A DNA stretch of 64,000 nt from Antedon mediterranea. Its lineage: Eukaryota; Animalia; Echinodermata. Shown one piece after another: positions 9,471-58,369 of the stretch. The notes beneath the pieces were generated by a model that made no database searches, was not told the origin of the DNA, and was given only the letters and a program-made list of their open reading frames with translations. A program made the translations under genes and the position numbers. Location of the stretch: positions 952,101 through 1,016,100 of the forward strand of contig NC_092677.1 in the NCBI RefSeq assembly GCF_964355755.1. The letters are read 5' to 3'. The first letter of the stretch is position 1. Every line of letters starts with the position of its first letter.

Positions 9471-10609
9471 GTGTAATAATTTTATGAAATATAAAATATA
9501 AGAGTAAATGATTTGTTTTTTTGTTGTTGTTCAAATATATATTTGAAATTTAATACTACCTACCTTATATAAGTACCTTATTAATTTATATTATTGTAAT
9601 TGTTTATACAAGAAAGAAAATAAATGTTTACGTTGAAGTTGAACTTGATAGTTTTTTTCAATAACAAATCAGTGAACAATTGATGTAATTGATTAATAAG
9701 CTAACTATAGAAGGAAAACTGAATCCAAATCCCCATCCTCGAAACAATTTATTTAAATACCCGATAGCCCCTACGTACAGTATATTAAATAGAGAATTTT
9801 CTTTTTTCTTTTTCTTTCATTTATTTGGCATCTCAATAAATAACATTAAAAATACATCAATAATATATATAATTCATACTATATCTTACACTAAATGTGT
9901 ACTAAGCCTACTGATTCTTAAACAAACAAAATTGATAATAAATCATTATTTCTTAAATTAATAAATAGAATATCAATTTAAAAAAAATCATTTAAAATAC
10001 GAAAGAACAATAATTAAAACTGTTATGCAAAAACTCGAGCTGCGTTTTGTTTAAGAAATATTTCTTGTTAATCCTTACACTCCTCTGACGTTCACAACAA
10101 GCGTATGATATGTATTTTGCAATATGAACAATTTCATAAAAAAAACTTTAATTGATTTTTAGAAGTTAGAGACTAGAAATAAAAAAAAAATTGTATTTTG
10201 ACTTATCATACTATAGAGGGGGTATAACAACTTTTTTAAAACACCTATTTCCTTGTCGACTAATAGTCAGTAGACTGTATAATATTAGACTTAAAGGCCT
10301 ACTGTGCATGATATTATGTGGTTCGCACATGTGTACTTCTCATGTGTACTTCTCAATCCATTAAACGTACATTAGTGATCAAAATGTTAAACGGAAACCA
10401 AGGATTTATTGCTTTAATTGGTTTAACTTCAACAGGTAGGTCTTGCTTAATCTTCCAATCATAATAGTTTATTGGGATTTTTATGGAATTAAACATGTTT
10501 TACTAGTTCAATCAATAAGCGGTCATTTTGCCCAACTAAGTTGACCAATCACAATTTTGACCAATCACAGTTTTACGTTCGTTGCGTCGGTCCTTGCCAA
10601 CCTAACCAT

Positions 10610-26120: not shown

Positions 26121-26192
26121 GCCCCAGTGGTCTAATGGTTAGGGCAACTGCATATCAAGCAAGCGGTCCAAGTTCGAGTCTCGGTTGGGGCG
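26121..26192 (+). tRNA. Degenerate tRNA-like copy (anticodon ATC)
   Basis: Same as 26485-26556 with mismatches in the anticodon and T stems. Confidence 0.4.
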
Positions 26193-32320: not shown

Positions 32321-32536
32321 TAATAATAATAATAAGCTTTATTTATTCACGGATACTTAACTCAACTGAAAGTTGTTTTTCAGTAAGTCCGTGCTCAAAA
32401 GAAAACACCAACAAAAACAAATGTAAAAAGATCATAATTACTACTAAAACAGATAATAAAAATAAGTATCTTCATTCTTTATATAAATGATAAGCTCATT
32501 TTGATGAATGAATTAAATTATTCTAATTTGTCCTAG

Positions 32537-32887
32537 TTTTATTTAGTACATGCACTGGTGTGACTGTAACTATTGATATCTTGGGAGATGTGATTGAAGG
32601 TTCTGAAACGAGAATGATATGTAACTACAATCCTACAAGTGGTGGGACTATTATCATAACATGGAGTAATGTCACAGGAGGGGCATCTGAATCTATAGCA
32701 ACAACTGTTGTGGGTGTATCTAAAGATGTGCAGCCTGCCTACAGTGCTATCTTTAGTCTTGATCCAAATGATGATAGAGCTCTTGTGATTGCTAACACTT
32801 TACGTAGTTACAGTGGTGATTACGAATGTGATGTTGTTATTACTGGTGTATCTTCTGGCAAGGATGATGTTACTCTGAATGTTATAT
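32537..32887 (+). CDS. Ig receptor gene 1, V-type Ig exon
   Basis: tcctag| acceptor, T|gtaagt donor, phase 1/1; MICNY..ITW..ALVI..SGDYECDV..VTLNV. Confidence 0.9.
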
Positions 32888-33270
32888 GTAAGTTATTTTG
32901 AAGAGCAAATAACTTAACTGTAGAGTACGTAGGCAAGTTATACAATTATTGATTATTAATGTATGATGTCAAAAGTTTTAAATAATAATTAAAACTATAA
33001 TTTAATTTGTCACTTTGACGAATTATAGGTGATCATTGTGATAAGATAATTTTACTGATATTTAATTTGTTTTTTATATGTTTAATTATGAGCCCAAAAC
33101 GATGATGTATTTCAATTGATTGTGGCTATTAATGCGTAATGACTTATGATGTTATTTACTTGATATTTGAGCATGCTATTTAGTTCCACACTAAATATTA
33201 TCTTTAATACTAATGTGTATGGGGTAGAACCGTTATGTAATCATTTGAGTATCTCAGTCTTGACTTACAG

Positions 33271-33519
33271 ATATAGAGGACCCAGTATTAAGTTTGACTA
33301 CACCTGTGAATGAGGGTGATCACGTAGCATTGTCATGTGATGTTGTTTCCAAACCAAACGCCCTGTTCACTTTTAAGAAGGATGTATCCATTTTACAGCA
33401 AGGAGGCTTGTCTACTTACACCTTCACTGCGGATCGGGACGATCAAGGGAGTTATACGTGTGAGACAAGTAACAGTGCTGGTACTAAAGCTACTGCTGGT
33501 CAGGTTCTAGAGGTGTTTT
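33271..33519 (+). CDS. Ig receptor gene 1, second Ig (I/C2-type) exon
   Basis: ttacag| and |gtaagt, phase 1/1; VNEGDHVALSC..SKP..DQGSYTCETSNSAG. Confidence 0.9.
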
Positions 33520-33614
33520 GTAAGTATGTACTATATCATTCAAATTTAACTAAATTCCTAAAGAATCATTTCTGCATTAAACTTTAAATTCAAATTTAAA
33601 TATAATCTATAATT

Positions 33615-33760
33615 TATCATAGTATGGAGTAATGTCACAGATGGAGCTTCCGATGTAATAGCAATAACTATTGTGGGTGTATCTAAAACGTGCAGGCTTC
33701 CTATATTGATATCTTTAGTCTTGATCCAAATGATGACAGAGTTCTTGTGATTAATACATT
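33615..33760 (+). pseudogene. Intronic diverged partial copy of the V exon
   Basis: WSNVTDGASDVIAITIVGVSK/VQASYIDIFSLDPNDDRVLVI versus WSNVTGGASESIATTVVGVSKDVQPAYSAIFSLDPNDDRALVI; one frameshift; no evident splice sites. Confidence 0.85.
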
Positions 33761-34076
33761 TAATTTTTTTTTAAATATGTTAAAATATGAGAGCAAAACG
33801 CGTATTTCATCCAATGACCTGGCTGCATTTGGTAATTTTCACAATCAGTGTTGTAACTGTTGTACTGTCAAGTCCAACATTTCAAATGAAGTGTACAGTA
33901 TAACAATACTTTTGCAGTAGGCCTATTAAAATCATGGAACTAAATATGAAATTGTAAAAATGTAACTTTTTGGGACTTAATACTTTAGTAGTTTATGTAC
34001 TCATGTCATATCCATGGTAAAACAGCCTGTTGAGAAAAAAAAACATTTTTGTTGTAAACAAAGATAATTGACAAAA

Positions 34077-35398
34077 CTAGATGGTACGCTCGCTTCGCTC
34101 GCGTACCATCTAGGTCGTGCCCACAGATGGTTCTCGAATACACAGTAATTTCAGCGTAACAAAACTGGCGATTTCAAATGTACGTACCGCAGGACTATAG
34201 GCCTATACATTGTCGTTTAGAGAAACGAATAAATAGACACGATGATTTATGTAGTCAACTAAAATTAGCACCCTGGGAATTACTTCCGAAGGAGAAACTT
34301 ATCACAAAATTAGTCCAAGTTTTTGATTTGAACTCATTTAAAGAAACCCAATTTGTGTTTTGTATGTAACATTAGGGTTGAGGGATGGGAAAGCGGATAG
34401 GTACAAAGAGGAACAATTTTTAAATATATTCTTTATCCACTCAGTAACGAAATATTTTTTTCATGTTTTATAGGCCTATAAATAATATACCTCTAAATAC
34501 AGTAAAACATTTGCGATTTAATACTTTTTTTATTTTATTTATTTATTTATTTATTTTAAATATTCATTGTACACTAATTTTCCCCGTGTATGGCAAGAGA
34601 TTCCTAATTATATTAGAGAACATTCTTTATTTAGTTTAGTTAAAACTGTCACTGTCATAATCGATTGAAATATTAAAGTACCATGTCACGATACACCACT
34701 ACGACGTTTATATTTGGTAATTATTAATTAATACAAACGTTGAGAAAGAACTGTCAGTATAAAGTTTATTTGTATATAATAATGTGTTTATATATCTAAC
34801 AGTAGAGCCTATCCACAATCTCGCAAGTTTATTCTCTAAGGGCCCATATATTTACCTACCGTATGTGTTAAACCAAGGGCTCATAAATTTACCTACAGTA
34901 CTTGTGTTAAACCAAACTCTGGCAGACTGAGAGATTGGGATGTTCCATTCATCGCAAATCAATAGATTTGTATAATCGTATATTAAATCTATCAAAATAG
35001 TATTTTTTAAAGAAAATCGGCCTGTCTTCAACATTATGATGGTGTACTCTAGCTGTTCAACCGGTTTTCAGCTATTAAAAACAATTATCGTAGGAGGAGA
35101 TAGGAAAATGCGAAGCCTCCTCGCATTTTTGTGGCGGGTATTTTTCAAGACGGACATCCATTATACAGTGTATACCACGGTCGGAAAACACCCCTATTTG
35201 GGGCAAATCTTGGAACCTAAATTCGTTTTAACCGTCAATAACTTATTATCTAACTTAATTTAATTAGTAAACAGGGTTACATCAGGTGGTTAAAATCAGT
35301 ACCGAAAGTACGAACCAACTTTATATACCATCGAGTAAAAATTCTAGAAGTAAGGCGCGATTTACCGAATTTTGCCCTTACGTAAATTTATATATAGA
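34077..35398 (-). mobile_element. Non-autonomous Helitron (intronic)
   Basis: On the - strand A|TC...hairpin-CTAG|T; reverse-complement match to both ends of 43555-49552. Confidence 0.85.
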
Positions 35399-35951
35399 TA
35401 TCTGCAATGAATTTACCCAAAAATCATTTTTGGGGTTGGTTGACAAGGTACTTAATTAAGTGATTTGTATACATTATTTTTATTGGCAAATTTGAAATTT
35501 GAAAGACATTTTTTTAATAGAGAGTAATCTAAATCAATCCCATTGCATGATTGCACCTTAAAAATATACAAGTTTTAAAAGAATTCACAAATTATTTACC
35601 AAGTTGAACATTTTATATGTTGGTGTTTCGGAGGTTACGGTTAACAATTGTACTTGTTTCAGAGGTTACACTTACTGTTTACAATATAAAAAAAACATTT
35701 TGTGATGCAAAATTTTGGTCCAATATTTCACTATTACACTAACACTAACCTACTGTCCGTATGGTAATCGCATTAAATGATTTAGGAACCTAATTATTAT
35801 TGTATCAAGTGGCAAGTAATACATAATACTATGAAACACATTAAACATTTTATATTGAATTGAGCATTCCCTCAAAGAACAAATAACTACATTTTAACAA
35901 CTAGCAATGTCAATTGCAAAACAACTTTTAAATGGTGTAAATTATAGGTTA

Positions 35952-36340
35952 CTAGATGGTTCTCGAATACACAGTAATTTCAACATAAAAAAGCTGGCAA
36001 TTTCAAATGTACGTACTGCTGGACTATTACATGTCGTTTGCAGGAACGAATAAATAGACACAGTGATTTATATAGTCAACTAAAATTAGCACCCTGGGAA
36101 TTATTTCCGAAGAGAAATTGTCAGAAAACGAGTCAACATTTTTTAGTTAAATTTAAACAAACCCAATTTGTGTTTTGTATGTAACATTGGGGTTGAGGTA
36201 TGGTGACAAATATATTCTTTATAAAAAATACAGTTCCTTCATAATAAAGTAATTTACTTTCTATGGACCAGAGTTTCCGAAATAAAAGATTGAATGAATG
36301 AATGAATGTATATACCATCGAGTATAAAGTCTAGAAGTCT
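35952..36340 (-). mobile_element. Internally deleted copy of the same Helitron family
   Basis: ctagatggttctcgaatacacagtaatttc...gtaacattggggttgagg matches 34125-34385. Confidence 0.75.
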
Positions 36341-36632
36341 AGTGTGATGCAATGTATCGGATGTGATACAATATTTCTTGATATTTTATATATGTCTTAT
36401 TCCTTGTCTGTGTTTTCTTGTTCACAGTTCAGTTAAATGATATTGAATGTATTTTGTTTTACAACAATAAAGAAACTGAAATATACAGGAAAAAACTTTG
36501 TAATGTTGTAGAATTTTAATTGTTATTAGTTGCACATGGTGAATTTAAAATTGCATCATGAGATGATATATATTTTCGTGAACATTGTAAATTAGTAAAA
36601 TAAGAAATAATAAAAATTGTGTCATCTTACAG

Positions 36633-36899
36633 ATTTTTCAAGTGGTAATGTGGTTAAGATTGATGTCAATAATAAAACCGTTGCTCATAATGTGATCATC
36701 ACATGCGATGGTACTGTAGATGGCAATTCAGTTCCTGATATAAACCTCTATAGCGATAACACTATTATTGAAACACAGACGACATTACCACTAATATACA
36801 CCATACCTACTGTGTCAAAGAATGACAGCGGAATGTACAGATGTGAAGCAAATAACAGTGTTGGAAATGTAACAAGTAGAACAATAACACTTAATTATT
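36633..36899 (+). CDS. Ig receptor gene 1, third Ig exon
   Basis: ttacag| and |gtaagt, phase 1/1; VIITC..DGNSVP..DSGMYRCEANNSVG; several N-x-S/T sites. Confidence 0.9.
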
Positions 36900-37345
36900 G
36901 TAAGTACTATAATAAATATCTCCATGAGTATACCAATTAAAATATAACCATTAAACTGTTTGTTTTCTTAAGTTTATTGAATATTATTATTTTGTGTTTT
37001 ATTTTAGGCCCTATATTGTTATATTCATTGTATTCATTTTTATTCATCGTCAAACACAGTAGAATATAGTAGATAGTTTGAAATTATTTTCGTTTGTTAA
37101 AAGTTAAACATTCAAATAAAAATAATTTTGTTTAAAGGGTCACTATGAAAAAGTATAATACTACTCTAAACACATATAATCATCTATTTGTTTCGAGATA
37201 ATGTTAAAATTAGAAATTAAGTAGAATTGAAATTGAATGTTACGTTAAATATGGAATTATATCCAATATACACAGTTTTTAATACAAAATATCGTGTACT
37301 GAAAAGATTTAAAGACATAAGTAAAAATAAAGCCATTGTTTTCAG

Positions 37346-37600
37346 ATAAACCAATATTTGAACAATATATATATACTGTTGGACACGGTGAGAAATATGT
37401 TATCACAGCTGATGTTAACGCTAACCCTCAAGAGGTATCTTATGTTTGGAGCAGTGATGGTGTTAATGATACAGATATTAATCCTGCAACATTCACATTC
37501 ATTGCGTCATCAGTGGAAGACAACACAATTTATGAAATATCACTAATTGCTACTAATCTTATTGGATCAACTTCCAAGACAATGTGGATCGCAGTCTCAG
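37346..37600 (+). CDS. Ig receptor gene 1, Cys-less Ig-like membrane-proximal exon
   Basis: tttcag| and CAG|gt, phase 1/1; YKP..ITADVNANP..YVW..IATNLIGS. Confidence 0.8.
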
Positions 37601-38353
37601 GTTGTTACTCCAACCAACATTTTTTTTAAATGTATGCATTTCCTTTCAACAAACACGTAAAAAAGTTCCGCCGAAATTTTGGCAACAAACAAATTGTCAT
37701 ACAATTACATCATCATCATAAAAGATAAAAGAAAAGCATCAACGACCATTATGTGCATTTGATAGAACACGAATGTGTTTGTTTTAACTTACAGATAGGA
37801 CATATCTGTATTTGTTTACCAATGTTTTAGTCTGGTAATTTAGCCAATAGGTTTTTAAGTATTAAATACTTAAATTAATTATTAATTCTTAAATTGCATT
37901 TATGCTTTTTATTCTTCAAAGTCAACAAACAGCATTTGTTTATAACAGATGCGGAAAATGTCATAAGGATCTATCAAACAAGTCAATAATAATCCATGCG
38001 ATTTGTGAGCAATAAGCTCAGTGATGTTTCATATCATTTGGTAACATGCCCACGTCCACATAGAAACACTTCATGATATTTAAATTATTTTAGTGTGAGT
38101 GTCGTAGAACAGTATTAAAACCTTATTTTAATGATATTTACTGTGTCACAAGTCCAACACTAAATATTAACTGAACAACCCTCTAAACTAAATAATCCAT
38201 AGCAATTGTCTGTAGACATAAGTCCGTACGAGATTCGATTGAATAAACCTACAGTATTCAAATACCAACTGAAAATAACTTATTTTGACACTAATTGGTA
38301 TAGTTCATTTGTACTGATACCATTTATATGTAACTTTTTACGTTACTTTTCAG

Positions 38354-38475
38354 AGAAAACAGTTGAACCGCGTAATATCAATACAGGGCTGATAATTGGA
38401 ATGCTCTTTGTTGGCATCTTCATTGGTGCCGTAGGATTGTATATTGGACAAATTATTCACAATAAGATAAGGAAG
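38354..38475 (+). CDS. Ig receptor gene 1, transmembrane exon
   Basis: EKTVEPRNINTGLIIGMLFVGIFIGAVGLYIGQIIHNKIRK; phase 1/0. Confidence 0.88.
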
Positions 38476-38738
38476 GTTAGTTAGATTTGTAATTCTAAAA
38501 CTTGCAAAACTAGTGACAATATTCGAATGCTTGAGTATCTCCAACAATATAGCAAGTAAATACGTAGAATGCTGATTATTGTTGTTCAATTTACACAGGG
38601 AAGGGGTGAGAATAAAGAAAAATTATTTCCACTTTTAATATTTAACTTTCACAAAATTATCCTTTAAGTAAAATAAATCAAATTAAACGACATTTATTAT
38701 GACCAGAATACTATTATATTACTGTAATTTATACTTAG

Positions 38739-38783
38739 AAGTCACTGTCAGAAAAACAAGAAACAGACAAAAGGAAACAAGAA
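38739..38783 (+). CDS. Ig receptor gene 1, short cytoplasmic exon
   Basis: cttag|KSLSEKQETDKRKQE|gtaagt; homologous exon at 53467-53508. Confidence 0.75.
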
Positions 38784-39051
38784 GTAAGTATTGATCTGTA
38801 AAGACGATCAACAAAACGAGTCAAATGACAGGATATATCACACTCATTACTTAAAGAATAAACTAAACTAAAGTGATTTGGTCTAATTTGACTCCCGATT
38901 AAACGTACTGTTAAACTCTCTGGTTTAAATTAATGTATTATTTTTAGTGTATTGGAGGTATGCACTCTCGCTTTGTAGTTTTTAGTGTATTGCACTTTAT
39001 TTATTGCCATACAGAACAATACTTTTGTAATTTTAATTTGCTTTCTGACAG

Positions 39052-39180
39052 ACATACATGGATTATGTAGGAGAAAGTGGTGGAGAAAACCAAACATATC
39101 AAGACTTACAACACAGAGTAGAAGAGTCAGCTTATGTTAATGTTAAGGCTGGGAATAAGAATAAGAAAGGGAAAGTGTGA
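39052..39180 (+). CDS. Ig receptor gene 1, last exon with tyrosine motifs
   Basis: gacag|TYMDYVGESGGENQTYQDLQHRVEESAYVNVKAGNKNKKGKV-stop; strongly similar to 53673-53807. Confidence 0.85.
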   Translation, partial: TYMDYVGESGGENQTYQDLQHRVEESAYVNVKAGNKNKKGKV

Positions 39181-40730
39181 ACAAATTAATAATTTAAATA
39201 AAAAGCAAGGAAAAACATGCGTCATTAATGCTTGAAACAAGTACACGGTTTAAAGGAAGAGTATCGATCTACACCAAACAGGATGTGTACAGTTAAATAT
39301 AATTAGATTAGAGAGAAATTTAAGAAAATTGTGACTATATATTATCATTCAAACTTCGCTATAGGCCTACAACGTAAATATTTATCTATATATTTTATTC
39401 TAAGCCTGGCCTACTATCTTTTAATTACCAAACAATTTAAACTAACACCAATATAGTTTAATTTGAGCAGACCAACGGTAATTTTATCTGAATGTGTGTA
39501 ATAATTTATTAAGTTTACATTTACAGGCCTGTATATTGTTAGCAGATTAATAAATATCTTAACACTTTTTATTCTACGATTGAGCTGAATTTCGATTTCC
39601 ATCGTGTTAAGTTGAGGTCTATTTTCATGTAGTAGTGAATGCCCATGACAACCCCTTACTGACCCTCTGATGTTTCCAGTTTTTTAGTTTAGTAATTATA
39701 TAAACTTATATTGGCATTACAACATTGTATACGATTAACGAATTAAAAAAGGAATATCTCTATATACAGCATTTATAATATTTTTGTCATAGTTTTGCGA
39801 TGGTTTAAAATACATATACATGACATCTAATTTACAAAAAGGCTGACTACCTTAAAAAGAATTTCAATTATGCTCTTTTAAAACTAAGAAAACTAATTAA
39901 AATATCATATTTGTGCTTTGTAATCATGGTGCAATGAGTTTCCATTGCCATTTTGTATCAGGTATGGTAGAACATTACGTTAATCCGTCACTATTTCACA
40001 AATGGTGGCGTCAACAAAAGCGTGAAAAAGAGGCTCAAACAACATTTTCTGCTAACATCCCGATTAACCAGCAGTTATTAATACGTACTAGTGTCAATAA
40101 CTGAAGTCGACAACCAAAACATTATAGACTACTTAGATATGTACTACAAATAATGTATTGTACTTAGTAGGATATTAACTTACTATTAGGAATTAGGCCT
40201 ACGCCACCGTTGATCTCATTCTCATCGCTTTTTCTGATGACTCCAAATTTAATTGTTCGTGAACCATACGTGATGTTAATCAAGCAAATTCGCTTTAGAT
40301 AAAGAATAAACAAATAAAAAATTGAGTACAGTTGATTCAATTTAAATAGAACATTAGTTTTACTCATGACTATAATAACTCGCGATTACGATGTTTCACA
40401 GTACCTTTCTATTGCATTCACGTTTCGTTTTTCATTAATAATAGTGGGTAGCGCTTTAGCAGTCATACAAACAGTAAGGTTTATATTTTTGTTGGATTTC
40501 GTGTTAGATTACACATTGCATCAAACTGCTTTTATAATTAGATTATTAATTATAATTGATTCAAGCACAGACTTTATGATACAATTCAGTAGAGGCCAAT
40601 AGTTTGATCATTTAAGGCGGGATTCTGAAGGTACTGATTACTATCCGTTATATATTTAAGGTTTTTTATTAGTATTTGTCGAATTATTCGAATACACAAA
40701 TTATAATTACAATTATGTCAATTGTAACCT

Positions 40731-43298
40731 TACTCTAGTAGCTAGATCAACTTTCGTATGCACTTTGAGGTCCAGAGAATTTGACTTCAGAAATTGGTTT
40801 AGGATGGTCAAACAATCATTATTGGCTTGGTTACACATTTTGAAAATGTGGCGAAAGGTCAAAAGGTCAGGGTGAAAGGTTATCAAACTAAACACCAATA
40901 AGTCCTTAAATCTCGACAACCACTGGTTAAAGCGAGGTAATTTTGGTCTCAAACTGATCAGAAGGTATACATTTATATTCAGTCTAATGGGACATTTTAG
41001 TCAAAAATGACCAGAAATACCATTTCTGACCTTTGACCCACACCTCAGAGCATGTATGTATCTCCGTAACTACTGATTGTAGACACTTGAATTTGGTCTT
41101 AAATTGTTTGAAATAAACATTTTGTTATTTGTTGCACATTTTTAAAAATGTTACAAAAGGTCAAAGGGTCAGGGTAAAGGGTTATATGAACAAATATAAA
41201 TAGATAGTTGTATCTCGGCAACCACTCGTCACAGCAAGTCAATTTTAGTCTCAAAATGTTCAGAAGGCATGCTTTCATATTCAATCTAATGGGACATTTT
41301 AGTAAAATTTAGTCAGAAATGCCATTTCTGACCTTTGACCCACATATCATGGCATCTTCATATCTCTGTAAGTACTGATCGTAGAAACTTAAATTTGGTA
41401 TCAAATTGTTCGAAATATACATATTTACATTCATTTTAATACTGTAGAACATGTGATTAAAAGATGAACAGAAATACTATTACTAATGTTTCAAACAAAA
41501 AACAAATCTCTACATAACTTATCCAGTAATGTTATGCCATAACTGATACTTTAAATTCTGTACCTTTTTCTAGTGGTATTGATAATAAATCTCCAGAAAC
41601 ATATATTGTTTTATTATCTACACTGGGAACAGACGTGTATAATATACACCGACAAAACTTCATATTATGTACCGGTATAAGTTTTGTCGGTAACATTAAA
41701 AAATATTATGCAACAGTGTTACGGAATAAAGACAATGAATTGGTCTATTATAGTTGTCTCTGATACCTTTTATTACATGATTGTACTTGCACCAGGATAG
41801 AATGAGGTTTAATCCAGTTATTATTCTTATTATATTAATTAATTTTTTTTTAATCTGGGGTGTATTTATTTGATTATACATGTTACCATTATTACACCCA
41901 AACAAAATAAACGCCTTCTTTGAATGGATGCCCGGGCCTTTTATTCGGCTATGGTAAGTTACTTCTAGCATTCTTAACTGTTGAGCTCGAGTATTAATTC
42001 GAATTAAAACCCGCTTTGAATAAAAGCCTCCCTCAAATAAACGCCACCATTCCCTCCAATAGAACATCATGTGGAATAAACGCTCCGCCACATGCATTTA
42101 CAAAATAATTGTATTACAACACATTTCATTAACTACCATAATCTACAATTTAACAAGCATTTTGACATAATTTTATTAACTACAATAATCTACAATTTAC
42201 CAAGCATTTTTTTCACTTTTTGATATTAATTGTGCTGTATTTTTTTTACATCTAGGTGGTATTTATTTCATTATACATGTTACCATATTATACTCCAAAT
42301 AAAGATGCCTCCCCTCCCCCTAAAAACCCTTTTGAACAATAAATGCCCGGGGTGTTTAATCGGATACACATGGCAAGTTACTTCTAGCATTCTGAAAAGA
42401 ACTGTTGAGCTTGACGTTTATATCAAAATTGTTGTCGTGGACAGCAATAACTAGTACTTGAAATTGAAACAATTTAAAGTATCAGTTATTGCATAACTTT
42501 ACTGTCTAAGGATAAGTTGTGTAGAGATATGTTTTTTGTTTTAAACATTAGTAATAGTATTTTCTGTTCATCTTTTAACCACATTTTCTATTACAATGAA
42601 TGTAAATATGTATATTTCGAACAATTTGATACCAAATTTAAGTTTCTACGACCAGTACTTACAGAGATATGAAGATGCCCTGGTATGTGGGTCAAAGGTC
42701 AGAAATGGCATTTCTGATCATTTTGTACTAAGATGCCCCATTAGACGGAATATAAATGCATGCCTTTTGAACATTTTGAGACCAAAATTGACTTGCTGCA
42801 ACCAGTGGTTGCCGAGATACAAGTACCTCTATTTATTTTTCATATAACCCTTGACCTTGACCCTTTGACCTTTTGTAACATTTTTCAAAATGTGTAACAA
42901 ATAACAAAATATATATTTCGAACAATTTAAAACCAAATTCAAGTGTCTATGACCAGTAGTTACGGAGATAAATACATGCCCTGGGTTGTGGGTCAAAGGT
43001 CAGAAATGTCATTTCCGGTCATTTTTAACTAAAATGTCCCATTAGACTGAATATAAATGTATATCTTCTGATCATTTTGAGACCAAAATTACTTCGATGT
43101 GACCAGTGGTTGTTGAGATTTAAGGACATATTGGTGTTTGGTCTTATGACCTTTCACCCTGACCTTTTGACCTTTTGCCACGTTTTTAAAATGTGTAACC
43201 AAGCCAAAAATGATTGTTTGACCACCCTAAACCAATTTCTGAAATCAAATTCTCTGGACCTCAAAGTGCATACGAAAGTTGATCTAGCTACTAGAGTA
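40731..43298. mobile_element. Non-autonomous long-TIR element (~820-bp arms), Academ-like
   Basis: TACTCTAGTAGCTAGATCAAC...GTTGATCTAGCTACTAGAGTA; arms share tgacctttgacc and catttccggtcatttt motifs with 4037-7576; flanks cct/ctt (imperfect). Confidence 0.7.
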
Positions 43299-43554
43299 CT
43301 TGTGGTATCATGACAGTAGGAGGCCTATATTCCAATGTACGTAAATGGTGTTTACACTGAACGATAAGTACAAACTTTTAATTCAGTCCGTGTACACATT
43401 GTAATAGTTTTACTAAATGAAATATAATGTTTAGCTCCATGATGAGGATCTGTTTAAAGATGCTGTATGCTAAAATGAATAAAATTAACCACATTCTGTA
43501 TCGCAAATATGCTTAATCGGCTTTGTTAGTGTATGTGATTGCATTGGTATTTAA

Positions 43555-46500
43555 TCTATATATAAATTTACGTAAGGGCAAAATTCGGTAAATCGCGCGT
43601 TATTTCTAGAATGTTTACTTGATGGTATATAAAGTTGGTTCGTACTTTCGGTACTGATTTTAACCGCCTGATGTAACCCTGTTTACTAATTAAATTGAGT
43701 TCGATAATTAGTTATTGACGATTAAAACGAATTTAGGTTCAACGATTTGCCCCAAATAGGGGTGTTTTTCGATCGTGGTATACACTGTCTAATGGATGTC
43801 CGTCTTGAAAAATACCCGCAGACGATAATACGAGGATGCTTCGCATTTTCCTATCTCCTCCTACGATAATTGTTTTTAGTGGCTGAAAACCGGTTGAACA
43901 GCTCGAGTACAGCATCATAATGTTGAAGACAGGCCGATTTTCTTTAAAAAATACTATTTTGATAGATTTAATATACTTTTATACAAATGTATTGATTTGC
44001 GATGAATGGAACATTCCAATCTCTGTTCCACAATTGTCTATTCCCTCAGGCGTCGTAAAGGCAAGTACTGTATACTGATAACAGAAATTCGATCCATTTT
44101 TTTTTTCAATCTGTGCTGCAGAGGTTGGATATAAATTTTTTTTAAACGGATAAAGAGCTAGCGTTTTAACTCGCCGAATATTATGTATAAATCTTTATTA
44201 TTGCAGTTAAACCACCCACATCATCACCCTTCCCTCACTGGCATGAGTAGCGTTGTAAAACCAGTAGAGGATAGGCCTACGGTACATCACATGCCCTAAA
44301 CGCAGAACAACTTTGGTGGGTAGGGTAGGAACCAACTTAAGTATGAAACAATTGAAAACCATTAGGCCTACTAATTAAGTCGAGTTAGATAATTTAATAT
44401 TTATTGACGATTAAATCGAATTTATGATTTTCCCCGAATAGAGGTGGTTTTCACAAATTGTTTTACATTATATAAACATATACACGTCGTAGTGACGTAT
44501 CGTTACATGTACTATACTATTTCAATCGACTAGGACGGTGATAGTTTCAACAAAGTATTACATCGCAATGTTTTACTGTGTTTAGTGGTATATTATTTGT
44601 AAAACATGAAAACAATTAATATTTCGTTACTACATGGATAAACTAATTAAATTGAGTTCGATAATTAGTTATTTACGATTAAAACGAATTTAGGTTCAAC
44701 GATTTGCCCCAAATAGGGGTGTTTTTCGATCGCGGTATACACTGTCTAATGGATGTTCGTCTTGAAAAATACCCGCAGACAATAATACGAGGATGCTTCG
44801 CATTTTCCTATCTCCTCCTACGATAACTGTTTTTAATGGCTGAAAACCGGTTGAACAGCTCGAGTACAGCATCATAATGTTGAAGACAGGCCGATTTTTA
44901 AAAAAAAATACTATTTTGATAGATTTAATATACGTTTATACAAATGTATTGATTTGCGATGAATGGAACATTCCAATCTCTGTTCCACAAGTGTCTATTC
45001 CCTCAGGCGTCGTAAAGTCAAGTACTGTATACTCATAACAGAAATTCGATCCATTTTTTTTTCAACCAACCCAACCATTTCAATCTGTGCTGCAGAGGTT
45101 GGATATACATTTTTTTAAACAGATAATGAGCTAGCGCTTTCACTCGCCGTATATTATGTACACATCTTTATTATTGCAGTTAAACCACCCACATCACAAC
45201 CCTTCCCTCACTGGCATGAGTAGCGTTGTAAACCCAGTAGAGGATGGGCCTACGGTACATCACATGCCCTAACTAAACGCAGAACAACTTTGGAGGGTAG
45301 GGTAGGAACCAACTTAAGTATGAATTGGCTCTAAGAAACAATTGAAAACCATTATGCCTACTAATTAAGTTGAGTTAGATAATTTAATATTTATTGACCA
45401 TTAAATCGAATTTATGATTTTTCCCGAATAGAGGTGGTTTTCACAAATTGTTTAAAATTATATAAACATATACACGTCGTAGTGATGTATCGTTACATGT
45501 ACTATACTATTTCAATCGACGGTGATAGTTTCAACAAAGTATTAAATCGCAATGTTTTACTGTGTATAGTGGTATATTATTTATAATAATAATAATAATT
45601 TATTAGGAAATGACACCTTTGCATCGGTGGCACACACAGAAGTGGTGCATCCAATTTAACATAATACATCAAAACAATACATTATATGACGGATACAGGT
45701 TCCTAAACTGTTTGCAAAAATATAAAAGAAAAATCATTACCAACATGGTAATATAGGTACTGTATTAAATTGTCCTACAGTATCATAGGTTTGAGTTGAT
45801 AAAGAGGTATATCAAAATAAACATAAAATATAATAAAGAGTTTACATTACAAACCATTGTGTTTCAACATCAGGTACTGATGACCTATAGTTGTTATCAC
45901 AGGTGTATACTATTTACAAATCTAAATACAAATATATAAAAGCAACAATACAAAAGAAAAACAATCTATATATTGGGAGATTTAAGTTCTGACCGTTTCT
46001 CCCATGCAGCTCTTGTGTATTGTTTACAAAACAAATCAAAAAAGGTCTCAGATTCTTTACAAATCGCGATAGAATCTCCACCTAAAATATACTGTAATTT
46101 ATCATCAGCAGTTGCTGTTGTGTAACGATTCCATGTGTCATAATCATTACAGAGTACAAGATTATTTTGTAGATTGGATAATTCTTTCATTCTAATATTA
46201 TCAAATGCTTTACAGCTTAATAAAAAATGTTTAATGTCTTCGATTTCGCCATTCCCACATAAAGTACAAAGACCGGACACATCATTGGACCATTTATAAG
46301 TTTTACAATCTAAAGGTAGAGTGTTAGATCTTAATTTAAATTTCAGACTTGTCTCATAAAAATGTGTTTTATCAAGTAAATATTTTTCTAAATTAGGGAA
46401 AGGTTTCAATTTTGAGTATAAATTTAATGAGGTTTTTTGCATTATATTATTTGACCACTCTGATTTATATGATTCTGACAAACATCGCTCGACATTGCTA

Positions 46501-49500
46501 ACTGAGAAAGGAACAAGAGTTAAACTATCATTATCAAAAACATTGTTGTAAAAGCCTATATCTGTACATTTTTCAAATATGTCAACACAACTACTAAGAA
46601 ATTTATATTTTAAACGATCAAAGTCACATTTCAATTGTAGCATAGAATTAAGTACAATATTAGGCCACCTGTGGTCATCCATAGTTATAAAACGATTAAA
46701 TAATTTAACTCTGGACAGTTTGTGTAGAAACCCACCCAAGGTCACCATAGAGTGCCTCTTTTGGAGTATACCGTGGAGCTTTGAGAAGAAAGCGGGCCAT
46801 TTGCAATTGCACTTTCTCTAGGTCTTCGTTATCCTTCTTGGATTTATTATACCAAATGCTACAAGCATAATTTATTGAAGGAATTGCAATGGTTTTCCAC
46901 AGTATGTTTCCATAGTACACCCGGTTAAAGTCATCAAGGTTAGCTATGATACCTTTGATATAAGCTATAAGCCGGTTGCCCTTTTGGATAACATGTTCAT
47001 AATGTGAATGTTCACTCATGTTTGAGGAAATATAGACCCCTAAATATTTATAACTATTTACTTCTTTTATCGATTTTTCACCTAATTTCCACTCTTTATC
47101 TTTATTTATGCGTTTTCCAACAACCATGACATTTGATTTTTCATGATTAAAACCAAGTTTCCATTCTTTGGCGAATATATTGGCAATTTCTAACATTTCA
47201 GTCATTTCCCTTTCATTATTAGCAATCAATATAACATCATCAGCCCAGAAGAGCCCTCCCATCCAGACACCATTCATTCTTACCCCAAAGTTGCTTTCAC
47301 GAAGAAGTTTAACAAATTCATTAATAATATAGAAAATAAAATTGGTGAGAGTACACACCCTTGTTTTACTCCTTTGTGGATATTAAACTCATTAGTCATG
47401 CTTTCCCCCACTTTTACTTTTGCTTTAACATTGTCATATAGTGAGCTTATTATTTTCCAAATTTTCCCTCTAACTCCCGTATCCCAGGCACATTTTAGGA
47501 GACCATCACGCCATACACTATCAAATGCTTTTCGGAAGTCCAGGAAAGCTAGATGTGTAGTTTTACCTTCAATTGAACGACAAGATAAAATGCTTTTCAA
47601 TGTAAAGATGTGATCTTCACAACGGTGATAGGCTCTAAAGCCTCCCTGGACTTCCGAAAGTACATTTTCTTTTTCAACAAAGCAAGATATATACATTGAG
47701 ATTACTCTATTAAATATTTTGGAAACACAAGATGTTAATGAGATGCCTCTATAATTATTTAGGTCTTTACGATCTCCTTTTTTAAATATTGGTACAACGA
47801 TACTCATATTCCACTCACTTGGAATTGTTTCTAATTTGATAATTTTATTAAATAAGCAAACGAGTGATGCCGCTAAAGCGTCTCCACCATTTTTTAAAAG
47901 CTCATTGGTTATTCCATCAACTCCCGGAGCTTTATTATTTTTAGCGATTGCAAGTGCCTCAATGATTATATCAAGGTCTATATTAATGTCACATAGTAAA
48001 TTTTCGTCATCGTTATTATTACCTAATGTATTAGAACGCATCTCATCAACCGCCCGCTTCGTTAAATAAGTAAAACAATCATAATCGTTATTAGCCTTAC
48101 CTAAGTTCTCCCAATACTTTTTAACAAAATAAAGTATTTTTCCTTTATCACAAGTAGTTTCATCTGATTCTGGGATTTTTACACAATTAATGCCTGATTT
48201 ACTATGTTTGTCATTAGACCCTTTTAATATGTTCCAAAAGTCCCTACAGGATGGTCCTCCTTTATTAGCAATCTCTACCGATTTATTTACCCTAGTTTCA
48301 GTAATTTTCTTAGATATAACTTTTTTGGCATGTATCCTTTTTTCTTGATAATATTGCCACAGATTATCTGTGTGAGCACAATTGGGATCTAATTTAACTG
48401 AGCGTCTATGAGCACGAGCAGCCTCTCTTCGTTCTGCTATTGCTTTTTGAACTTCATTATCAAACCAATGTTTACGTTTTTTACTTAATTTCTTAATACC
48501 AATACCATCCTTAGCTGAAGAAACAACAATAGATTTCCAGGATTCCCACAAGTTATCAACATTATTAAAGCCATCAGCATTCCAGTTGGAAAAGTTGTTT
48601 TCAATATTTTCTTGATACTTAATAAAATCCTGAATACCTGCAGTATTCCATACATGATTAGCATAAGAATGATGATTGACAGAAGTGATTAGGGTAGTAT
48701 CTAATTCTAACAAAAGGCTATTGTGATCACTTCCTGTGCCTAGCTTTCTGTCTTCATCAACAATGAACTTTACTACATTATTCAACATATTTTGAGAACA
48801 AAGTATGTAATCAATGGTGCTTTTCTGATTACCCTTGCACCAAGTAACCACCCCTTCACATAAAGGACTACAGTTTAAAATAAACATATTTGAATCATCC
48901 TTAAATTGTAGTAAGCGCTTACCATTACTATTAACCTGTGGATCACCATTAGCAATTTCATGACCAATTCTACCATTAAAGTCCCCCATTATCAGAATGA
49001 GAGGCTCATGATTTTCTGCATTATTTTCTAATTGGATAACTTCTGATAATAATTGATTAGTCAATTCATCTGATTTCTCACTGTCAACTCCATTAACAGG
49101 ATAATATACTACCGATATATACACTGGTGTGTTTGAATCAAAACACACTTTTACCCAAATTTGTAAAACATGAAAACAATTAATATTTCGTTACTAAATG
49201 GATAAAGAATATAATTTAAAAATTGTTCTTCTTTGCACCCATCCTCTTCCCCATCCCTCAACCCTAATGTTACATACAAAACACAAATTAAGTTTGTTTA
49301 AATTTGACTTAAACAATGTGTCTCAGTTTGTGACAAGTTTCTCTTTCGGAAGTAATTCCCAGGGTGCTAATTTTAGTTGAGTACATAAATCACAGTGTCT
49401 ATTTATTCGTTCCTGTAAATGACATGTATTATTGTCCTGCGGTACGTACATTTGAAATCGCCAGTTCTTTAACGCTGAAATTATTATGTATTCGAGAACC

Positions 49501-49552
49501 ATCTGTGGGCACGACCTAGATGGTACGCGAGCGAAGCGAGCGTACCATCTAG
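43555..49552 (+). mobile_element. Non-autonomous Helitron with internal ~950-bp tandem duplication and a LINE insertion
   Basis: A|TCTATATA start; tagatggtacgc...gcgtaccatCTAG|T end; ~43685-44640 repeated at ~44641-45582. Confidence 0.85.
45583..49160 (-). mobile_element. 5'-truncated LINE (APE endonuclease, RT, C-terminal CCHC) with (ATT)n tail, RTEX-like
   Basis: MGDFNGRIG, TIDYIL, SDH, KAPGVDGI, NYRGISL, DFRKAFD, QGCVLSP, WADD, YKYLG, CTLC..EDIKHFLLSC; two frameshifts; empty site visible at ~44595. Confidence 0.9.
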
Positions 49553-49597
49553 TAATTATAATTATTTTAAAGATAAACTGTTTATTCCAGATTTGCA

Positions 49598-52500
49598 ATG
49601 GCAATATGCAGACTTACAATGATTTTCTTTATTATTCAATATGTGATTGTAAGTACAAAATACATTTTTCCCCATATAAAGATCCAACAACCAAATTTAT
49701 GTAGGCTACTAATATGTTATTATGTTTGATTATCAAATAACAAATAAAACTTTAAATATTGTTTGGACAATTCGTTATGGGACACACATTTTATAAAATA
49801 GCTGGATAGCTTATAGTATGTTGTAAACTTCAGTCAAGTGAAGATTTGATCCAATTTTTAAAATTTATAAATAAAAATGTGTACAATTAACAATTTCAAT
49901 TTTCAATATATTAACAATAATTTAAATGTTGTGTATTCTATTACAGTTATAAATAGTCAAACAGTATCAGTTACTGTACAAAATGCTACTGTTATATTAA
50001 ATGAAGATGCTGTTATCACATGTGATTACCCACTCAGTTCTACAAGAACACTGACTGCTTTCTGCTTTGTCACAATTCAAATGGAGATCAGTTAAACTTT
50101 CTTGTTACAGTGCTCTAACAAATCCAAATGGTAGATACATAGTTAATACCTCACAAAATGGTACAGCTACTCTCACCATTGCCAACACAGTGTTGTCTGA
50201 TGATGATGGATACTATCTATGTAATGTTCTTGATTCATTTGGTGAAAATGGTGAACATTTTGGAAAACTAAATGTTCAATGTAAGTATTTACTGTTACTC
50301 TCTAATGATTTTTAGCATTATGTTATAGATAACCTAATTTTGGAATTCATTTCATCTCTAATACTGTCTTACAGATATTGATGACGTTATTATTGATATC
50401 AATTCACCTACTAATCCCTTATTCACAATGACGTGTTCTGGAAATGGTAATCCTGTTCCTAAATTAAATCTGTATCACGACGAGACTACTATAGTAACTG
50501 GTACACTAACAATGCTAAGATACACACAAAGTAAAATAACGGAAGATGACAATGGAAACTAAATTGTATAGCTAGTAGTACCGCTGGACAAAAGGAAAGT
50601 GAATTGATAGAACTACAATACTGTTAGTAAACATGTTATTATTAATATCTTATCCAAGGTGAAACGTGCAGATGATCTAAACACTGCTTTTAAGTATCTG
50701 TGTATGAAGAAGCATTGCTGCCTTCGCATAGTTAGTAATTTTAATATTATACAAGTCCTCTTAGTTTGTTTACAAAAGAACCGTCATCACTCATGGAGGA
50801 AATATATAGATATCTATATATTTCCTCCATGCATCAAAGTTCTGAGAAAGGTCCTAAAACAAAAACAAATAGATCGATACTATACTGCTTGATGCATGAT
50901 GTATTCGTTATGATAAACTTTTTATCTTCTTTAGATAAACCTGTTTTTGATTCCCTTATGAATAAAACAGCCTCTTCTAAGAAAAGTTATTTTTGAGATT
51001 GAAAACCTATCATACAACCCCAATGACGTCATCTACAAATGGACAACTGATGACCAATAGCATTGGATCCACGATAGACTCTTCGACAGTCACAGTTCAA
51101 AGTAAGTTATGATGTTTGAATCATTGGCTTATATTGTTGTATTTTTAGAGATTTTTTTCCCCCATATTTTTATTGTAATACAAACATTATTAACTGTGTG
51201 CTATTGCTTTTGTACCGTCATAAAAAAAAATAAATAAAAAATAACGTAAAATGCAGGGCCCCAATGGAAACCAGTTTTTAACTGTTTGGGCTACCCTGGG
51301 TAAATAAATGTAAATAAATAAATAATAAATAAATATCATACATATTACTATCATACATATTAATCATAACGTTCTTTTAGTTCAATACCCGTACGCAAAT
51401 ACAGATGTATTTATAGTGATCAGAAACATAATATGATAGTGATTAAAGCGATTCATGGGTATTATTATTTTGAATCAAATATGCCTCATTTCTGAGTTAC
51501 CACACACTTTATCTAGTTTGTTGTTGGCTTATTGTATTTTTATGTTTGAGTCACAGCCGATCCACTTAAAGGGGGGTTCCGGGTTTAAAATGAATAGTAA
51601 AAAATGTAAAATATATTATTTGTTTGTCTCTTGAACGGTAAAAGTTTCAATTTATATAAGCGCCCAGTGAAGCAGAACGAAGGCTGTGAAATGAGGCCAG
51701 ATTACAAGTGCAGCTACGGCAAAATCACACTGTGGTTACAGAATTCGAAATTCGTGAAATGGTCAATCTTCCGACGACTCGTTATCAATAACCATATCAA
51801 TTACTTTTGTAAAATTATACTTATCTGATGTAATTTTAGTCGGTCTTCCCATTTATAAAATCAATTTTCTATGAAAATCCATCAAAACAGTGAAAAATTA
51901 GATAAGTTTGCACTTTACGTTTGCCGATTTTCGCACTGACTTAGGGAAAGCCTTCAAAATCAATGAAGCGTAACGTATACATTCCTGCTGAGCGAGGAGA
52001 GCGAGACGACGATACACGTGCTCTCTCTGCCCATGCCTGGCATCGTCACGTGATAAGCAGATACAGTATACAATACCAAACTGGTCGGGTCGAGTATACC
52101 CCGTCTATATCACAACATGAACGATGTACAGTATTTGATTGAAGGTCGACTCAACCTACCGGAATGGTATAGATAATATAGCTCGAATGAGAGAGTTGGA
52201 ATATTTGTAAACATAAGTACAGTATTGCTAATTTTAACAAGTGTAGCCTATAGTAAAAGGCCTGGTAGTATCAATTCGCATAGGGTCTACTACACTAGCT
52301 AGCTCAATTTTTAACTGGGCCGGATCGGCTAGGCTAGGCTAGGTCTCCTTCCTACTACCGGTCTACTTGCTTGATGCAGTATACGATTTTTTGGAGAGTA
52401 AACTAGGCCTACTTATTAGACCATACGTGCGGACGGCGATCGGACCTTGTTTTGCCTCAATATTTACAGCCGATTTTTGTAGAACGTTTTAGGTTTAGAT

Positions 52501-53807
52501 TGTTTAGGAGTTTGGTTGATAGGATGGGTTTGGAATCCACTGAGTTTTGTTATTTATGGGCCAATCGTTTAGTAATAGGCTAGCTAGGCCCATGAATGAT
52601 GGCCATCGTGGCATGGAATCCCTAGTCAGAAATGGCTCTCACCCCGGCATGAATAAAATGATTTAGTCTAGGCCTAGCCTAGTACGTGAAGCCGATATAC
52701 GATCTGTTACTATTAATTCGAGGTATAAAAATAGTATAATTTATGACTCCGTAATCTGTACTAAATTTTGTATTTCATTAAATGTCAAATAAATATATGC
52801 TACTGTTATTATTACACTTTAGGCCTAGCTTCTTAGCAAATCTACAAAAAATGTATTTCACAATGATCGGGTGGTCGTCGTTTGACAGAGGAGAGAGAAC
52901 ACAACGTACAAGCTTGACGTCGCGAGTTTGGAATCCACTGATGACGTGATTTTGTGAATATCTCATGAATATTAATGAGCTTCCCTAAGCTGCTGAAAAA
53001 CAGACTTTCCATGAATTTACCCTAAAATGTATATGAAATTTAATTTTTTTAATTTCTCGTTATTACTTCTTCATTCTGACATGTCTATATTGTTATAATA
53101 TTTTTTATTTAATAAATAAACGATATTTAAAAGCAATTTTAAACCCAGAATCCCCCTTTAAACCCTGCGAATGTGAAGAAACAATCGGAGAAACAGGCAA
53201 CAACAGTACAGGTTTAGTCATTGGAATGTTCTTCGTTGGAATATTCCTTGGTGCCCTTGGATTGTCTATTGGATTGTTTATGTATACAAAGACAACGCAG
53301 GTTTGACATCGATAGTTTTTAATTGTAAAATTGAATCTACTGCATAATGGTTTAAAGATTAAAGTCATTTGAGCAAAATCAAACTTTAACATAATATTAT
53401 ATAAAGTTGTAACTTTTCTAAAAGGAAATAAAGTACAGTAATAACACTCTTGACATTTGTATCTAGAAGCAAACAACTAACAAGGAAAAAACGGAAAAGA
53501 AACAAGATGTAAGCATTCGCATTTCATTTATTTTTAAACAATTTTGTCAATTACTTAGAAATTTGAAAATAAAGGCGCCATTCTTTGTTATTCTATCTTT
53601 TATATTTAATGTAATATTTGGTGTACTTTAAAATTCTAACTAACTTTGTTGAATTGACTTATGTTGTCACAGACTTATATGGAATACAAGGTTGATAGAC
53701 CTACTGATGGGGAAAACCAGACCTATAAAGATTTTCAACATAAAGTAGAGGAATCAGCTTATGTTAATGTTAAGACTGGGAATAGGAATAAGGGTTTGAA
53801 AGCGTAA
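49598..53807 (+). pseudogene. Ig receptor gene 2, pseudogenised paralogue of gene 1
   Basis: Exons: possible leader 49598-49648 (MAICRLTMIFFIIQYVI, phase mismatch), V 49947-50280 (frameshift), Ig 50375-50622 (frameshift), Ig-like 50935-51101 (stops), TM 51557-51569 plus 53162-53300 (split by transposon), 53467-53508, 53673-53807. Confidence 0.85.
51570..53157. mobile_element. Non-autonomous Kolobok-like transposon inside the TM exon of gene 2
   Basis: TTAA TSD (51566-51569, 53158-53161); TIR AGGGGGGTTCCGGGTTTAAAAT / ATTTTAAACCCAGAATCCCCCT; removal restores DPLKPCECEE. Confidence 0.85.
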
Positions 53808-57599: not shown

Positions 57600-58345
57600 C
57601 TAACTGACAATCATACACATTTTTCACAACAAATATAAAATATATTATAAAAATATATATTCTGCATAATAATATTGTATAAACTACCAGATATATAAAT
57701 ATATTGTTTTTAAACGCAAGATATAAAAATACATTTTGAGCAATATAAAACACAAGATATAAAATACATTTTGAGCAATATAAAACACCAGATATAAAAT
57801 ACATTTTGAGCAATATAAAACACCAGATAAAACAAATATATACTATGAACAATTTTTAAATTGCATAGTTGAAGTTGTATAAGATTATAAAAATATGTAT
57901 TACTTGAATTAAACTATTGAAGTTATTAGCTGAAGTTAACTATAACTGACAATCATACAAATTTTTCACAGCAAATATAAAATATATTGTTTTTAAACGC
58001 AAGATATAAAAATACATTTTGAGCAATATAAAACACCAGATACAAAAATATATACTATGAACAATATAACAATATTTAAATTGCATAGTTGAAGTTGTAT
58101 AAGATTATAAAAATATGTATTAGGCCTACTTGAATCACACTATTAAAACATTACCTTTAAAAAAAACATACCACACTATCTTTTCATGGTTATGATCACA
58201 CATTGTGGTTTTTTAATAAACTGTAAACTTCTAAATAATATAAAAATATTTAAATTGCATAGTTGAAGTTGTATAAGATTATAAAAATATGTATTAGCCC
58301 TACTTGAATCAAACTATTGAAGTTATTAGCTGAAGTTATTAAAGT
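57600..58345. repeat. Compound AT-rich tandem repeat
   Basis: ~35-bp unit gatataaaatacattttgagcaatataaaacacca; three copies of tttaaattgcatagttgaagttgtataagattataaaaatatgtatta. Confidence 0.85.
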
Positions 58346-58369
58346 TATTATATGATTAATCATTTGAAT

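Follow-up and report, generated by a model that had tools for sequence, protein, structure and literature searches.

Two immunoglobulin-type receptor genes of the crinoid Antedon mediterranea: an open-framed copy, a pseudogene and a family with two classes of predicted signalling tail

Described receptor systems and the crinoid family

Families of immunoglobulin superfamily (IgSF) receptors with activating and inhibitory types of signalling have been described in Hydractinia (Alr), in Botryllus (FcoR), in fish (NITR and DICP) and, as paired receptors, in vertebrates. Echinoderm immunity is known mainly through the expanded TLR, NLR, SRCR and Sp185/333 families. The present analysis concerns a 64,000-nucleotide stretch of the crinoid Antedon mediterranea (hereafter the window; RefSeq assembly GCF_964355755.1, contig NC_092677.1, positions 952,101 to 1,016,100, here renumbered from 1), which contains two genes on the same strand, gene A (32537-39180, +) and gene B (49947-53807, +). 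Gene A encodes, in this order, a V-type Ig domain, two further Ig domains, a cysteine-free Ig/PKD-like sandwich, a transmembrane (TM) segment and a tail with four tyrosines; gene B is a pseudogene. Relatives exist in two crinoid genera, their domains are mosaic, two classes of tail are found on related ectodomains, and V-Ig splicing occurs in close copies of gene A. Judging from these sequences, it is rather probable (roughly 60%) that gene A is an open-framed and gene B a dead member of a crinoid family of paired activating/inhibitory immune-type receptors, whose domains have been shuffled and whose tails have been swapped. If this is true, the layer of activating versus inhibitory receptors extends to the earliest-branching echinoderm class.

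The Alr system (10.1101/2022.03.04.482883) resembles the crinoid family in several respects: its genes are clustered, each domain has an exon of its own, pseudogenes and exon shuffling occur, and the single-pass IgSF proteins have a V domain followed by I-type domains, an Ig-like fold next to the membrane, and tails carrying immunoreceptor tyrosine-based activation or inhibition motifs (ITAM/ITIM). In Alr, an Fn3-like domain lies next to the membrane, the V domains are devoid of the Cys-Trp pin, and the tails diverge more than the ectodomains. The crinoid family, which is set apart from Alr by description, keeps the pin instead (a Cys pair, 64-72 residues apart, in 18/18 aligned V domains, and the Trp in 15/18) and has a proximal domain that appears weakly PKD-like; moreover, in the tail class of genes A and B the last exon reaches 71% identity versus 42% for the V domain, and a second, unrelated tail class is present. 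An Alr-like self-recognition has to be weighed at this point: a V domain would recognize its own variant when displayed by another cell, with inhibitory members signalling self and activating ones driving rejection or gamete/tissue discrimination. The V and I-type domains, the non-canonical membrane-proximal sandwich, the exon-per-domain layout, the pseudogenes, the exon shuffling and the ITAM/ITIM tails speak for it, but we regard it as improbable, given the pin retained here and absent from the Alr V domains, and tails that are the most conserved part in the crinoid family and more divergent than the ectodomains in Alr. Besides, feather stars are solitary. For allorecognition there is no direct support.

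The FcoR proteins of Botryllus (PMC12065747) are invertebrate deuterostome IgSF receptors with V and C2 domains and swappable ITIM or hemITAM tails, and in this they resemble the crinoid ones; they differ in having a sushi domain, long tails and a place in a histocompatibility locus, where they are paired with fester genes. A sushi domain (in FcoR the order is V-sushi-C2-C2-TM) gave no match in 14 scanned proteins or in nine exons of the window, and the crinoid activating-type motif is a two-tyrosine unit, unlike that of FcoR.

Vertebrate parallels are offered by Siglec-11/16 and by the FcR-like paired receptors (PMC2413239, PMC5701461). Together with CEACAM1/CEACAM3 and SIRP, they share with the crinoid family the opposing tails on related ectodomains, the shuffling, the gene conversion and the birth and death of genes, as well as an ITIM followed by an immunoreceptor tyrosine-based switch motif (ITSM) in the inhibitory class. 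A PKD-like domain, an optional EGF stalk and a YxxY/YxN tail are not known from these vertebrate families. There is no orthology with them either: the family profile gives similar scores for CEA, FcRL5 and titin, and therefore the RefSeq names "CEACAM-like" and "roundabout-like" attached to crinoid proteins are generic. The N domain of CEACAM is not known to have the intradomain disulfide; since both V cysteines are present in the crinoid family and the CEA match is generic, CEACAM membership was rejected.

The NITR and DICP of fish (10.1101/2021.06.11.448072) likewise form clusters of diversified V-type receptors, some inhibitory and some activating, and activation there depends on an adaptor and on a charged residue in the TM segment. 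The crinoid TM segment is, in contrast, uncharged in both genes A and B, and the motif is in their own tail. NITR membership was rejected because gene A has two cysteines per Ig domain rather than six and no FGxG was found in the G strand of 18 V domains; for DICP, the four conserved D1/D2 cysteines beyond the plain pair pattern are lacking. Two other invertebrate systems can be likened to the crinoid family by description: the sea urchin V-C1-TM genes (PMC3308324), which are V-type TM proteins described with a V-C1 ectodomain and without mention of tail motifs, whereas gene A has no C1 domain, and the oyster CgIgIT2 (PMC11999971), a multi-Ig TM receptor with an ITAM that responds to bacteria.

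A previous reading of the window made from the sequence alone (the sequence-only reading) had likened the two genes to Alr and NITR/DICP clusters; most of the defining features of those families that could be tested are missing, and the crinoid family belongs to none of Alr, NITR, DICP, FcoR and CEACAM. It is best seen as a variant, at the level of the family, of a receptor system whose kind is already known. The data support a previously undescribed invertebrate Ig family under birth and death.

Structure and transcription of genes A and B

Gene A is made up of seven exons with AG/GT ends and phases 1-1-1-1-0-0, forming a single open frame of 471 codons. Its parts, with a duplicate found in intron 2 and the leader exon of the annotation, are the following (related proteins are cited by their working numbers, P0002 and so on):

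10384..10435, + strand: leader exon per RefSeq XP_071958607.1 (annotation candidate), 22 kb upstream across retroelements; the RefSeq model is reproduced
32537..32887, + strand: V-type Ig domain (cysteines 69 residues apart, Trp at +14), preceded by the last part of the signal peptide; spliced to the next exon in RNA-like contigs
33271..33519, + strand: I/C2-type Ig domain of P0012 type (72/82 identical)
33614..33752, + strand: duplicate of part of the V exon, frameshifted and lying in intron 2 (84% over 140 nt)
36633..36899, + strand: second I/C2-type Ig domain, of P0002 type (75% identical)
37346..37600, + strand: Ig-like beta-sandwich, free of cysteines and weakly similar to PKD
38354..38475, + strand: TM helix after a short stalk, with no charged residue and with three GxxxG
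38739..38783, + strand: charged juxtamembrane cytoplasmic spacer; junctions the same in RefSeq XP_071958608.1
39052..39180, + strand: last exon with four tyrosines, YxxY and then the ITAM-like YQDL-x8-YVNV, and stop

The Pfam matches of the ectodomain exons are V-set (E 9.7e-5, below the cut-off when taken alone), Ig, Ig and a weak PKD (E 0.034). The first domain has the V-set features as regards the cysteine spacing (69) and the Trp (+14), and it carries YSGDYEC in the place of DxGxYxC, with the Asp replaced; its best match among solved structures is nectin-4 (E 0.004). A homodimer prediction for this domain scored 0.26 against a mark of 0.32 and was not used as evidence. The fourth domain is predicted to be a beta-sandwich (pLDDT, i.e., predicted local distance difference test, of 80), whose best structural matches tie at Z 7-8.8 between I-set Ig, bacterial Ig-like and AAVR PKD domains, with one titin Fn3 chain at 7.2; exon 4 has no Fn3 match in Pfam, and PKD is narrowly above the cut-off in P0009 and P0022.

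Two Antedon mediterranea RefSeq proteins are encoded exactly by the window. XP_071958608.1 corresponds to the last 205 residues of gene A, with four junctions alike, and XP_071958607.1 joins the leader exon at 10384-10435 to the V and first Ig exons of gene A. At the second junction, RefSeq uses a donor at 33523, 4 nt past the in-frame one at 33519 and hence out of frame. No convincing start codon or leader exon for gene A was found by tblastn with signal peptides of paralogues or in the lists of ATG-GT candidates, and no stalk exon was found between its PKD-like and TM exons. The claim that one gene is intact and the other dead is thus confirmed for gene B and only in part for gene A, which is intact in its reading frame, its intactness as a gene being unproven because the leader exon is without evidence and the second junction is disputed by RefSeq.

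This division of gene A between two RefSeq models is the starting point for a different explanation, according to which the family is real and its pairing and mosaicism are largely artefacts of annotation, gene A being not one gene but a front fragment of P0012 type that lies next to a back fragment of P0002 type. Intron 2, with its broken V duplicate and repeats, the 5'-truncated RefSeq family members, the apparently fused P0043 and the absence of any match to the third exon of gene A among the loose ends listed at the Ig exon would fit this explanation. The in-frame donor at 33519, however, is a full GTAAGT match and thus stronger than that of RefSeq (5/6), P0037 is a clean protein, and the inhibitory tail recurs in P0043 and partly in P0022 and P0060, so that we give this explanation a slim chance.

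As far as transcription is concerned, contigs from sequencing runs were compared with positions 32400-34000, i.e., the V-Ig part of gene A, divided into 30 bins. Runs X8 and X9, for which there is no RNA record, were called RNA-like from an exon-following cover and a GT..AG joint: in both of them the two exons are covered and several intron bins are empty. The joint 32887-33271 (GT..AG) is present in two contigs of X8 and three of X9, and is absent from the DNA-like runs X1 and X5, which cover all 30 bins. Most of the contigs (57/68 in X8 and 48/66 in X9) are less than 95% alike to the gene A region, and therefore derive mainly from close paralogues or from copies of another species. Spliced transcripts, a check proposed in the sequence-only reading, were thus found for the V-Ig joint, but in contigs that are mostly paralogue-like. 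In five X9 contigs, a loose end in front of the V exon, translated by hand, runs in frame from ENFTVVLSLA into LFSTCTG of gene A, representing a leader exon; it differs from the RefSeq leader at 10384-10435, and a 20-nt pattern taken from it was found nowhere in the window at up to three mismatches. In one X8 joint, the Ig exon is followed by its own start again, which indicates a transcript carrying two exons of this kind. Besides exact-match contigs, X1 contains others with 16-17 V differences and gapped intron variants. The contig depth summed over V, which is not a copy number, reaches ~1050-2000 in most bins, compared with 132-162 for the exact-match contigs. It is likely that several close copies exist, and the contigs are a mixture of alleles and paralogues.

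Gene B shows the same exon order and phases as gene A, with three ectodomain exons instead of four; the two genes on one strand with a common layout and a different domain number had been recognized correctly from the sequence alone. Gene B has been inactivated by frameshifts, a deletion and a transposon inserted into its TM exon, and its ectodomain exons are all out of phase (V 334 nt, Ig 248 nt, third 167 nt), as the following list shows:

49947..50280, + strand: V exon, frameshifted; V class of P0017/P0008
50375..50622, + strand: Ig exon with frameshift and stop
50935..51101, + strand: remnant of the PKD-like exon with an internal deletion
51557..51569, + strand: 5' piece of the TM exon; P0018 continues across
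51570..53161, no strand assigned: non-autonomous DNA element of 1.6 kb, TTAA-flanked, with terminal inverted repeats, within the TM exon
53162..53300, + strand: remainder of the TM exon (43/48 identical to P0018)
53467..53508, + strand: cytoplasmic spacer exon
53673..53807, + strand: last exon, YKDF-x8-YVNV

The two pieces of the TM exon add up to 152 nt, the phase of the TM exon of gene A. The earlier observation of barely alignable V exons next to close TM and last exons holds: the protein identity between genes A and B is 27% for V, 64% for TM and 67% for the last exon (the peptides then quoted lie at 39052 and 53673), and at the nucleotide level the V alignment has a z of 4.8, against 85% over 88 nt and a z of 17.9 for the last exon. 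The two genes fall in different V classes. Unbroken relatives of gene B were also observed, namely P0018, 90% identical over TM and tail, and P0017, with the full V-Ig-PKD-TM-tail order; therefore, gene B died recently or stays intact elsewhere.

Mosaic ectodomains, tail classes and possible function

Paralogues were counted from protein collections and not from genome DNA. The family so far comprises 10 Antedon mediterranea proteins (two of which are gene A) and two Anneissia japonica proteins; the candidates accepted were 6/9 with the tail as query, 8/259 with the C-terminal half of P0002 and 2/1041 with the V exon of gene A, one cluster member being added. A word-free search with P0001 returned 100 proteins, 96 of them new, and a PKD-like or TM-tail profile was passed by 40/108 stored proteins, one of the 40 being a marginal Ig-repeat protein outside the family. 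Fifty-eight long matches were rejected as generic Ig repeats, without the tail and with PKD-like scores of at most 33 bits versus at least 42 in 30 family members. Several RefSeq family members are 5'-truncated. There are more than the two copies seen in the window, and no one-to-one orthologue among conserved adhesion molecules was found, none of the 58 long matches carrying the family tail. The cluster of undescribed invertebrate Ig receptors suggested by the sequence-only reading stands as a family with at least eight other Antedon proteins, a pseudogene and shuffling; its immune role is inferred, and gains from the finding of relatives with ITIM and ITSM tails, which that reading could not see. 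Look-alike searches gave leads only, the PKD-TM-tail part being near allergin-1, CD22-like and FcRL1 (0.91, fewer than 170 shared features) and P0037 near generic IgSF proteins. Literature searches, which left subscription journals mostly uncovered, retrieved nothing linking crinoid immunoglobulins with ITAM or ITIM, and nothing on the family in a wider echinoderm search.

The conservation of the family increases towards the cytoplasm, the mean identity by domain being 42% for V, 39% for Ig, 49% for PKD-like, 64% for TM and 71% for the last exon. Pfam V-set is above the cut-off in P0011, P0002 and P0005, and the members vary in the number of Ig domains, some of them having EGF domains or a second V-Ig unit. 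The similarity between two members may change abruptly from one domain to the next: P0002 and P0005 share 91% of V, 31% of Ig and 37% of the PKD-like domain, while gene A and P0012 share 81/110 residues in V, 72/82 in Ig, 30/79 in the PKD-like domain and 13/33 in the last exon, and the back half of gene A is nearest to P0002 and P0004. From these identities, gene A is likely a recombinant, with a V-Ig front of P0012 type on a back of P0002/P0004 type; the approximately unbiased (AU) test of this mosaic is significant (p 1.8e-6, 28 rows). Between the V domains of gene A and P0012, 12/14 FG-loop positions differ versus 17/96 elsewhere.

Regarding the membrane and the tail, two or three GxxxG are present in 11/11 TM segments, none of which has a mid-membrane charge, and a Glu lies near the cytoplasmic end in 3/11. 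A Yxx[LIF]-x-YxN core is found in 21/40 relatives, with a spacer of eight residues in 19 and of nine in two; the linker from the core to the preceding tyrosine is variable, from 8 to 14, and YxN is the most invariant element of the tail. Shuffling the tail of gene A yields such a pair in 69/20000 cases, and Pfam assigned no family, ITAM included, to the last exons of the two genes. The gene A tail is, in its sequence, ITAM-like and not a strict ITAM, since it ends in YVNV. The ITAM-like unit is repeated four times in P0014 and twice in P0020.

The opposite type of tail is found on related ectodomains. P0037, whose layout is clean (signal-V-Ig-PKD-stalk-TM-tail) and whose tail bears an ITIM and an ITSM, is 84% identical over 213 ectodomain residues to P0015, which bears a strict ITAM and whose TM resembles Anneissia proteins, and the two share only 8/23 residues in the TM and 11/58 in the tail; an ITIM and ITSM tail and a strict ITAM on such similar ectodomains are the hallmark of paired receptors. 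A tail homologous to that of P0037 (E 3e-13) is carried by P0043 on a different PKD-like lineage (AU test, p 0.010), its PKD-like domain grouping with Antedon P0002 in the tree (98/94). The first half of this tail type is joined to an ITAM-like last exon in the hybrid P0022, and the type recurs in part in P0060. Both ITIM and ITSM arise in 78 and 19 of 20000 shuffles of the two inhibitory-class tails. As a separate observation, P0054, P0070, P0051 and P0095 carry family ectodomains on further unrelated TM/tail types, some of which lack clear motifs.

Several points weigh against a paired immune-type family. The groups in the AU tests were chosen after a tree had been inspected, and the mosaic domains could partly reflect chimeric annotation in a tandem array. 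The FG-loop difference between gene A and P0012 concerns a single pair and a region picked after viewing. The excess of non-synonymous changes in V for which the sequence-only reading had proposed a check did not appear: among 29 listed exon differences, which mix paralogues and are the listed part of a longer set, V has 6 non-synonymous and 6 synonymous and the Ig exon 11 and 6, with no V-specific excess. The strict ITAM (Yxx[I/L]-x6-9-Yxx[I/L]) is present in just 2/21 cores (P0006 and P0015), most of them ending in YxNV, and SAYVNV of gene A fits the ITIM consensus too, so that its signal could be of either sign. P0037 and P0043 are predicted models from protein collections, neither being placed in the genome of the window, and P0043 has an Ig domain after the TM, which suggests a fused model. 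Finally, the V-Ig splice contigs are mostly paralogue-like, so that they may reflect transcription of close copies and not of gene A itself.

Some of the same data would suit a lineage-specific family for adhesion or guidance (nectin-, CEACAM1- or PECAM-like), active in nerve, arm regeneration or development, whose tyrosines would signal via Grb2/SHP2 to growth or the cytoskeleton and whose expansion would be due to an unstable transposon-rich array and not to pathogens. Nectin-4 as the top solved V match, the profile matches with generic adhesion proteins, the invariance of YxN and the listed sites without a V-specific excess are consistent with it. We consider it unlikely, however, as a conserved orthologue with the family tail is absent among the 58 long matches, and what the family shows, namely fast turnover, a pseudogene, mosaicism and opposite tails attached to ectodomains with 84% identity, is typically seen in paired immune receptors.

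In a paired activating/inhibitory system, the FG and neighbouring loops of the N-terminal V domain would contact a variable ligand, either microbial or on a cell surface; the uncharged, GxxxG-rich TM segment would cluster receptors without an adaptor chain, and a Src-type kinase would phosphorylate the tail. Docking of a tandem-SH2 protein requires a fixed spacing of the tyrosine pair, and YxN is the preference of Grb2. The YxxL-x8-YxN pair of the A/B tail would accordingly be placed to dock a Syk/Shark-type tandem-SH2 kinase, giving an activating signal, and its YxN would recruit a Grb2-type adaptor; the ITIM and ITSM tails would dock SHP-type phosphatases, opposing activation. Syk is placed in invertebrates generally by PMC5978004. 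More tentatively, and with the odds somewhat against it, a complete crinoid system may be imagined, in which a shuffled V-Ig-PKD kit and exchanged activating and inhibitory TM-tail exons, all in one genome, would let coelomocytes weigh self and non-self, the activating tails combining the ITAM-like unit with a Grb2 site and being sometimes multiplied as in CD3-zeta. Such a system would be the first in echinoderms and would place a balance of signals in the style of natural killer cells at the base of deuterostomes. The family lends itself to direct testing: its genes are named in RefSeq, its tail is short and conserved, and two of its members form a matched pair.

Repeats and mobile elements around the genes

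The region is dense in transposons, as had been noticed from the sequence alone: besides the TTAA element of gene B, LTR (long terminal repeat) retroelement domains lie on both sides of genes A and B, and a LINE (long interspersed element) separates them:

45969..49190, - strand: LINE-type retrotransposon (endonuclease, reverse transcriptase, zf-RVT)

Repeat families at 87-94% identity are common to intron 2 of gene A (34076-35399) and, inverted, to the region upstream of the gene B V exon (43554-49553); these repeats are possible recombination substrates for the domain mosaics.

Further upstream, an LTR retroelement at 13151-23819 (-), with a zinc knuckle, reverse transcriptase, RNase H, an integrase zinc domain and identical 102-nt end repeats, is split by a 6-kb element at 16714-22699. 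The latter has terminal inverted repeats (89% over 124 nt) and open reading frames of 205, 1000 and 370 aa, none of which has a Pfam match at E 0.001, the 370-aa one ending in a cysteine-rich stretch; it is likely a DNA transposon of a class outside Pfam. Downstream of gene B, at 58343-59752, there is the integrase-bearing remnant of a second LTR retroelement. Two 260-nt tandem repeats at 26057-26683, with tRNA-like matches of 57.9 and 38 bits, are likely tRNA-derived short interspersed elements. A minisatellite with ~52 copies of a 30-nt unit occupies 4982-6563 and has long open frames on both strands. Long imperfect inverted repeats of foldback-like type, whose arms are internally repeated (24-nt, 150-nt and 302-nt units), are found at 27931-29001, 40731-43298 and 3209-8011.

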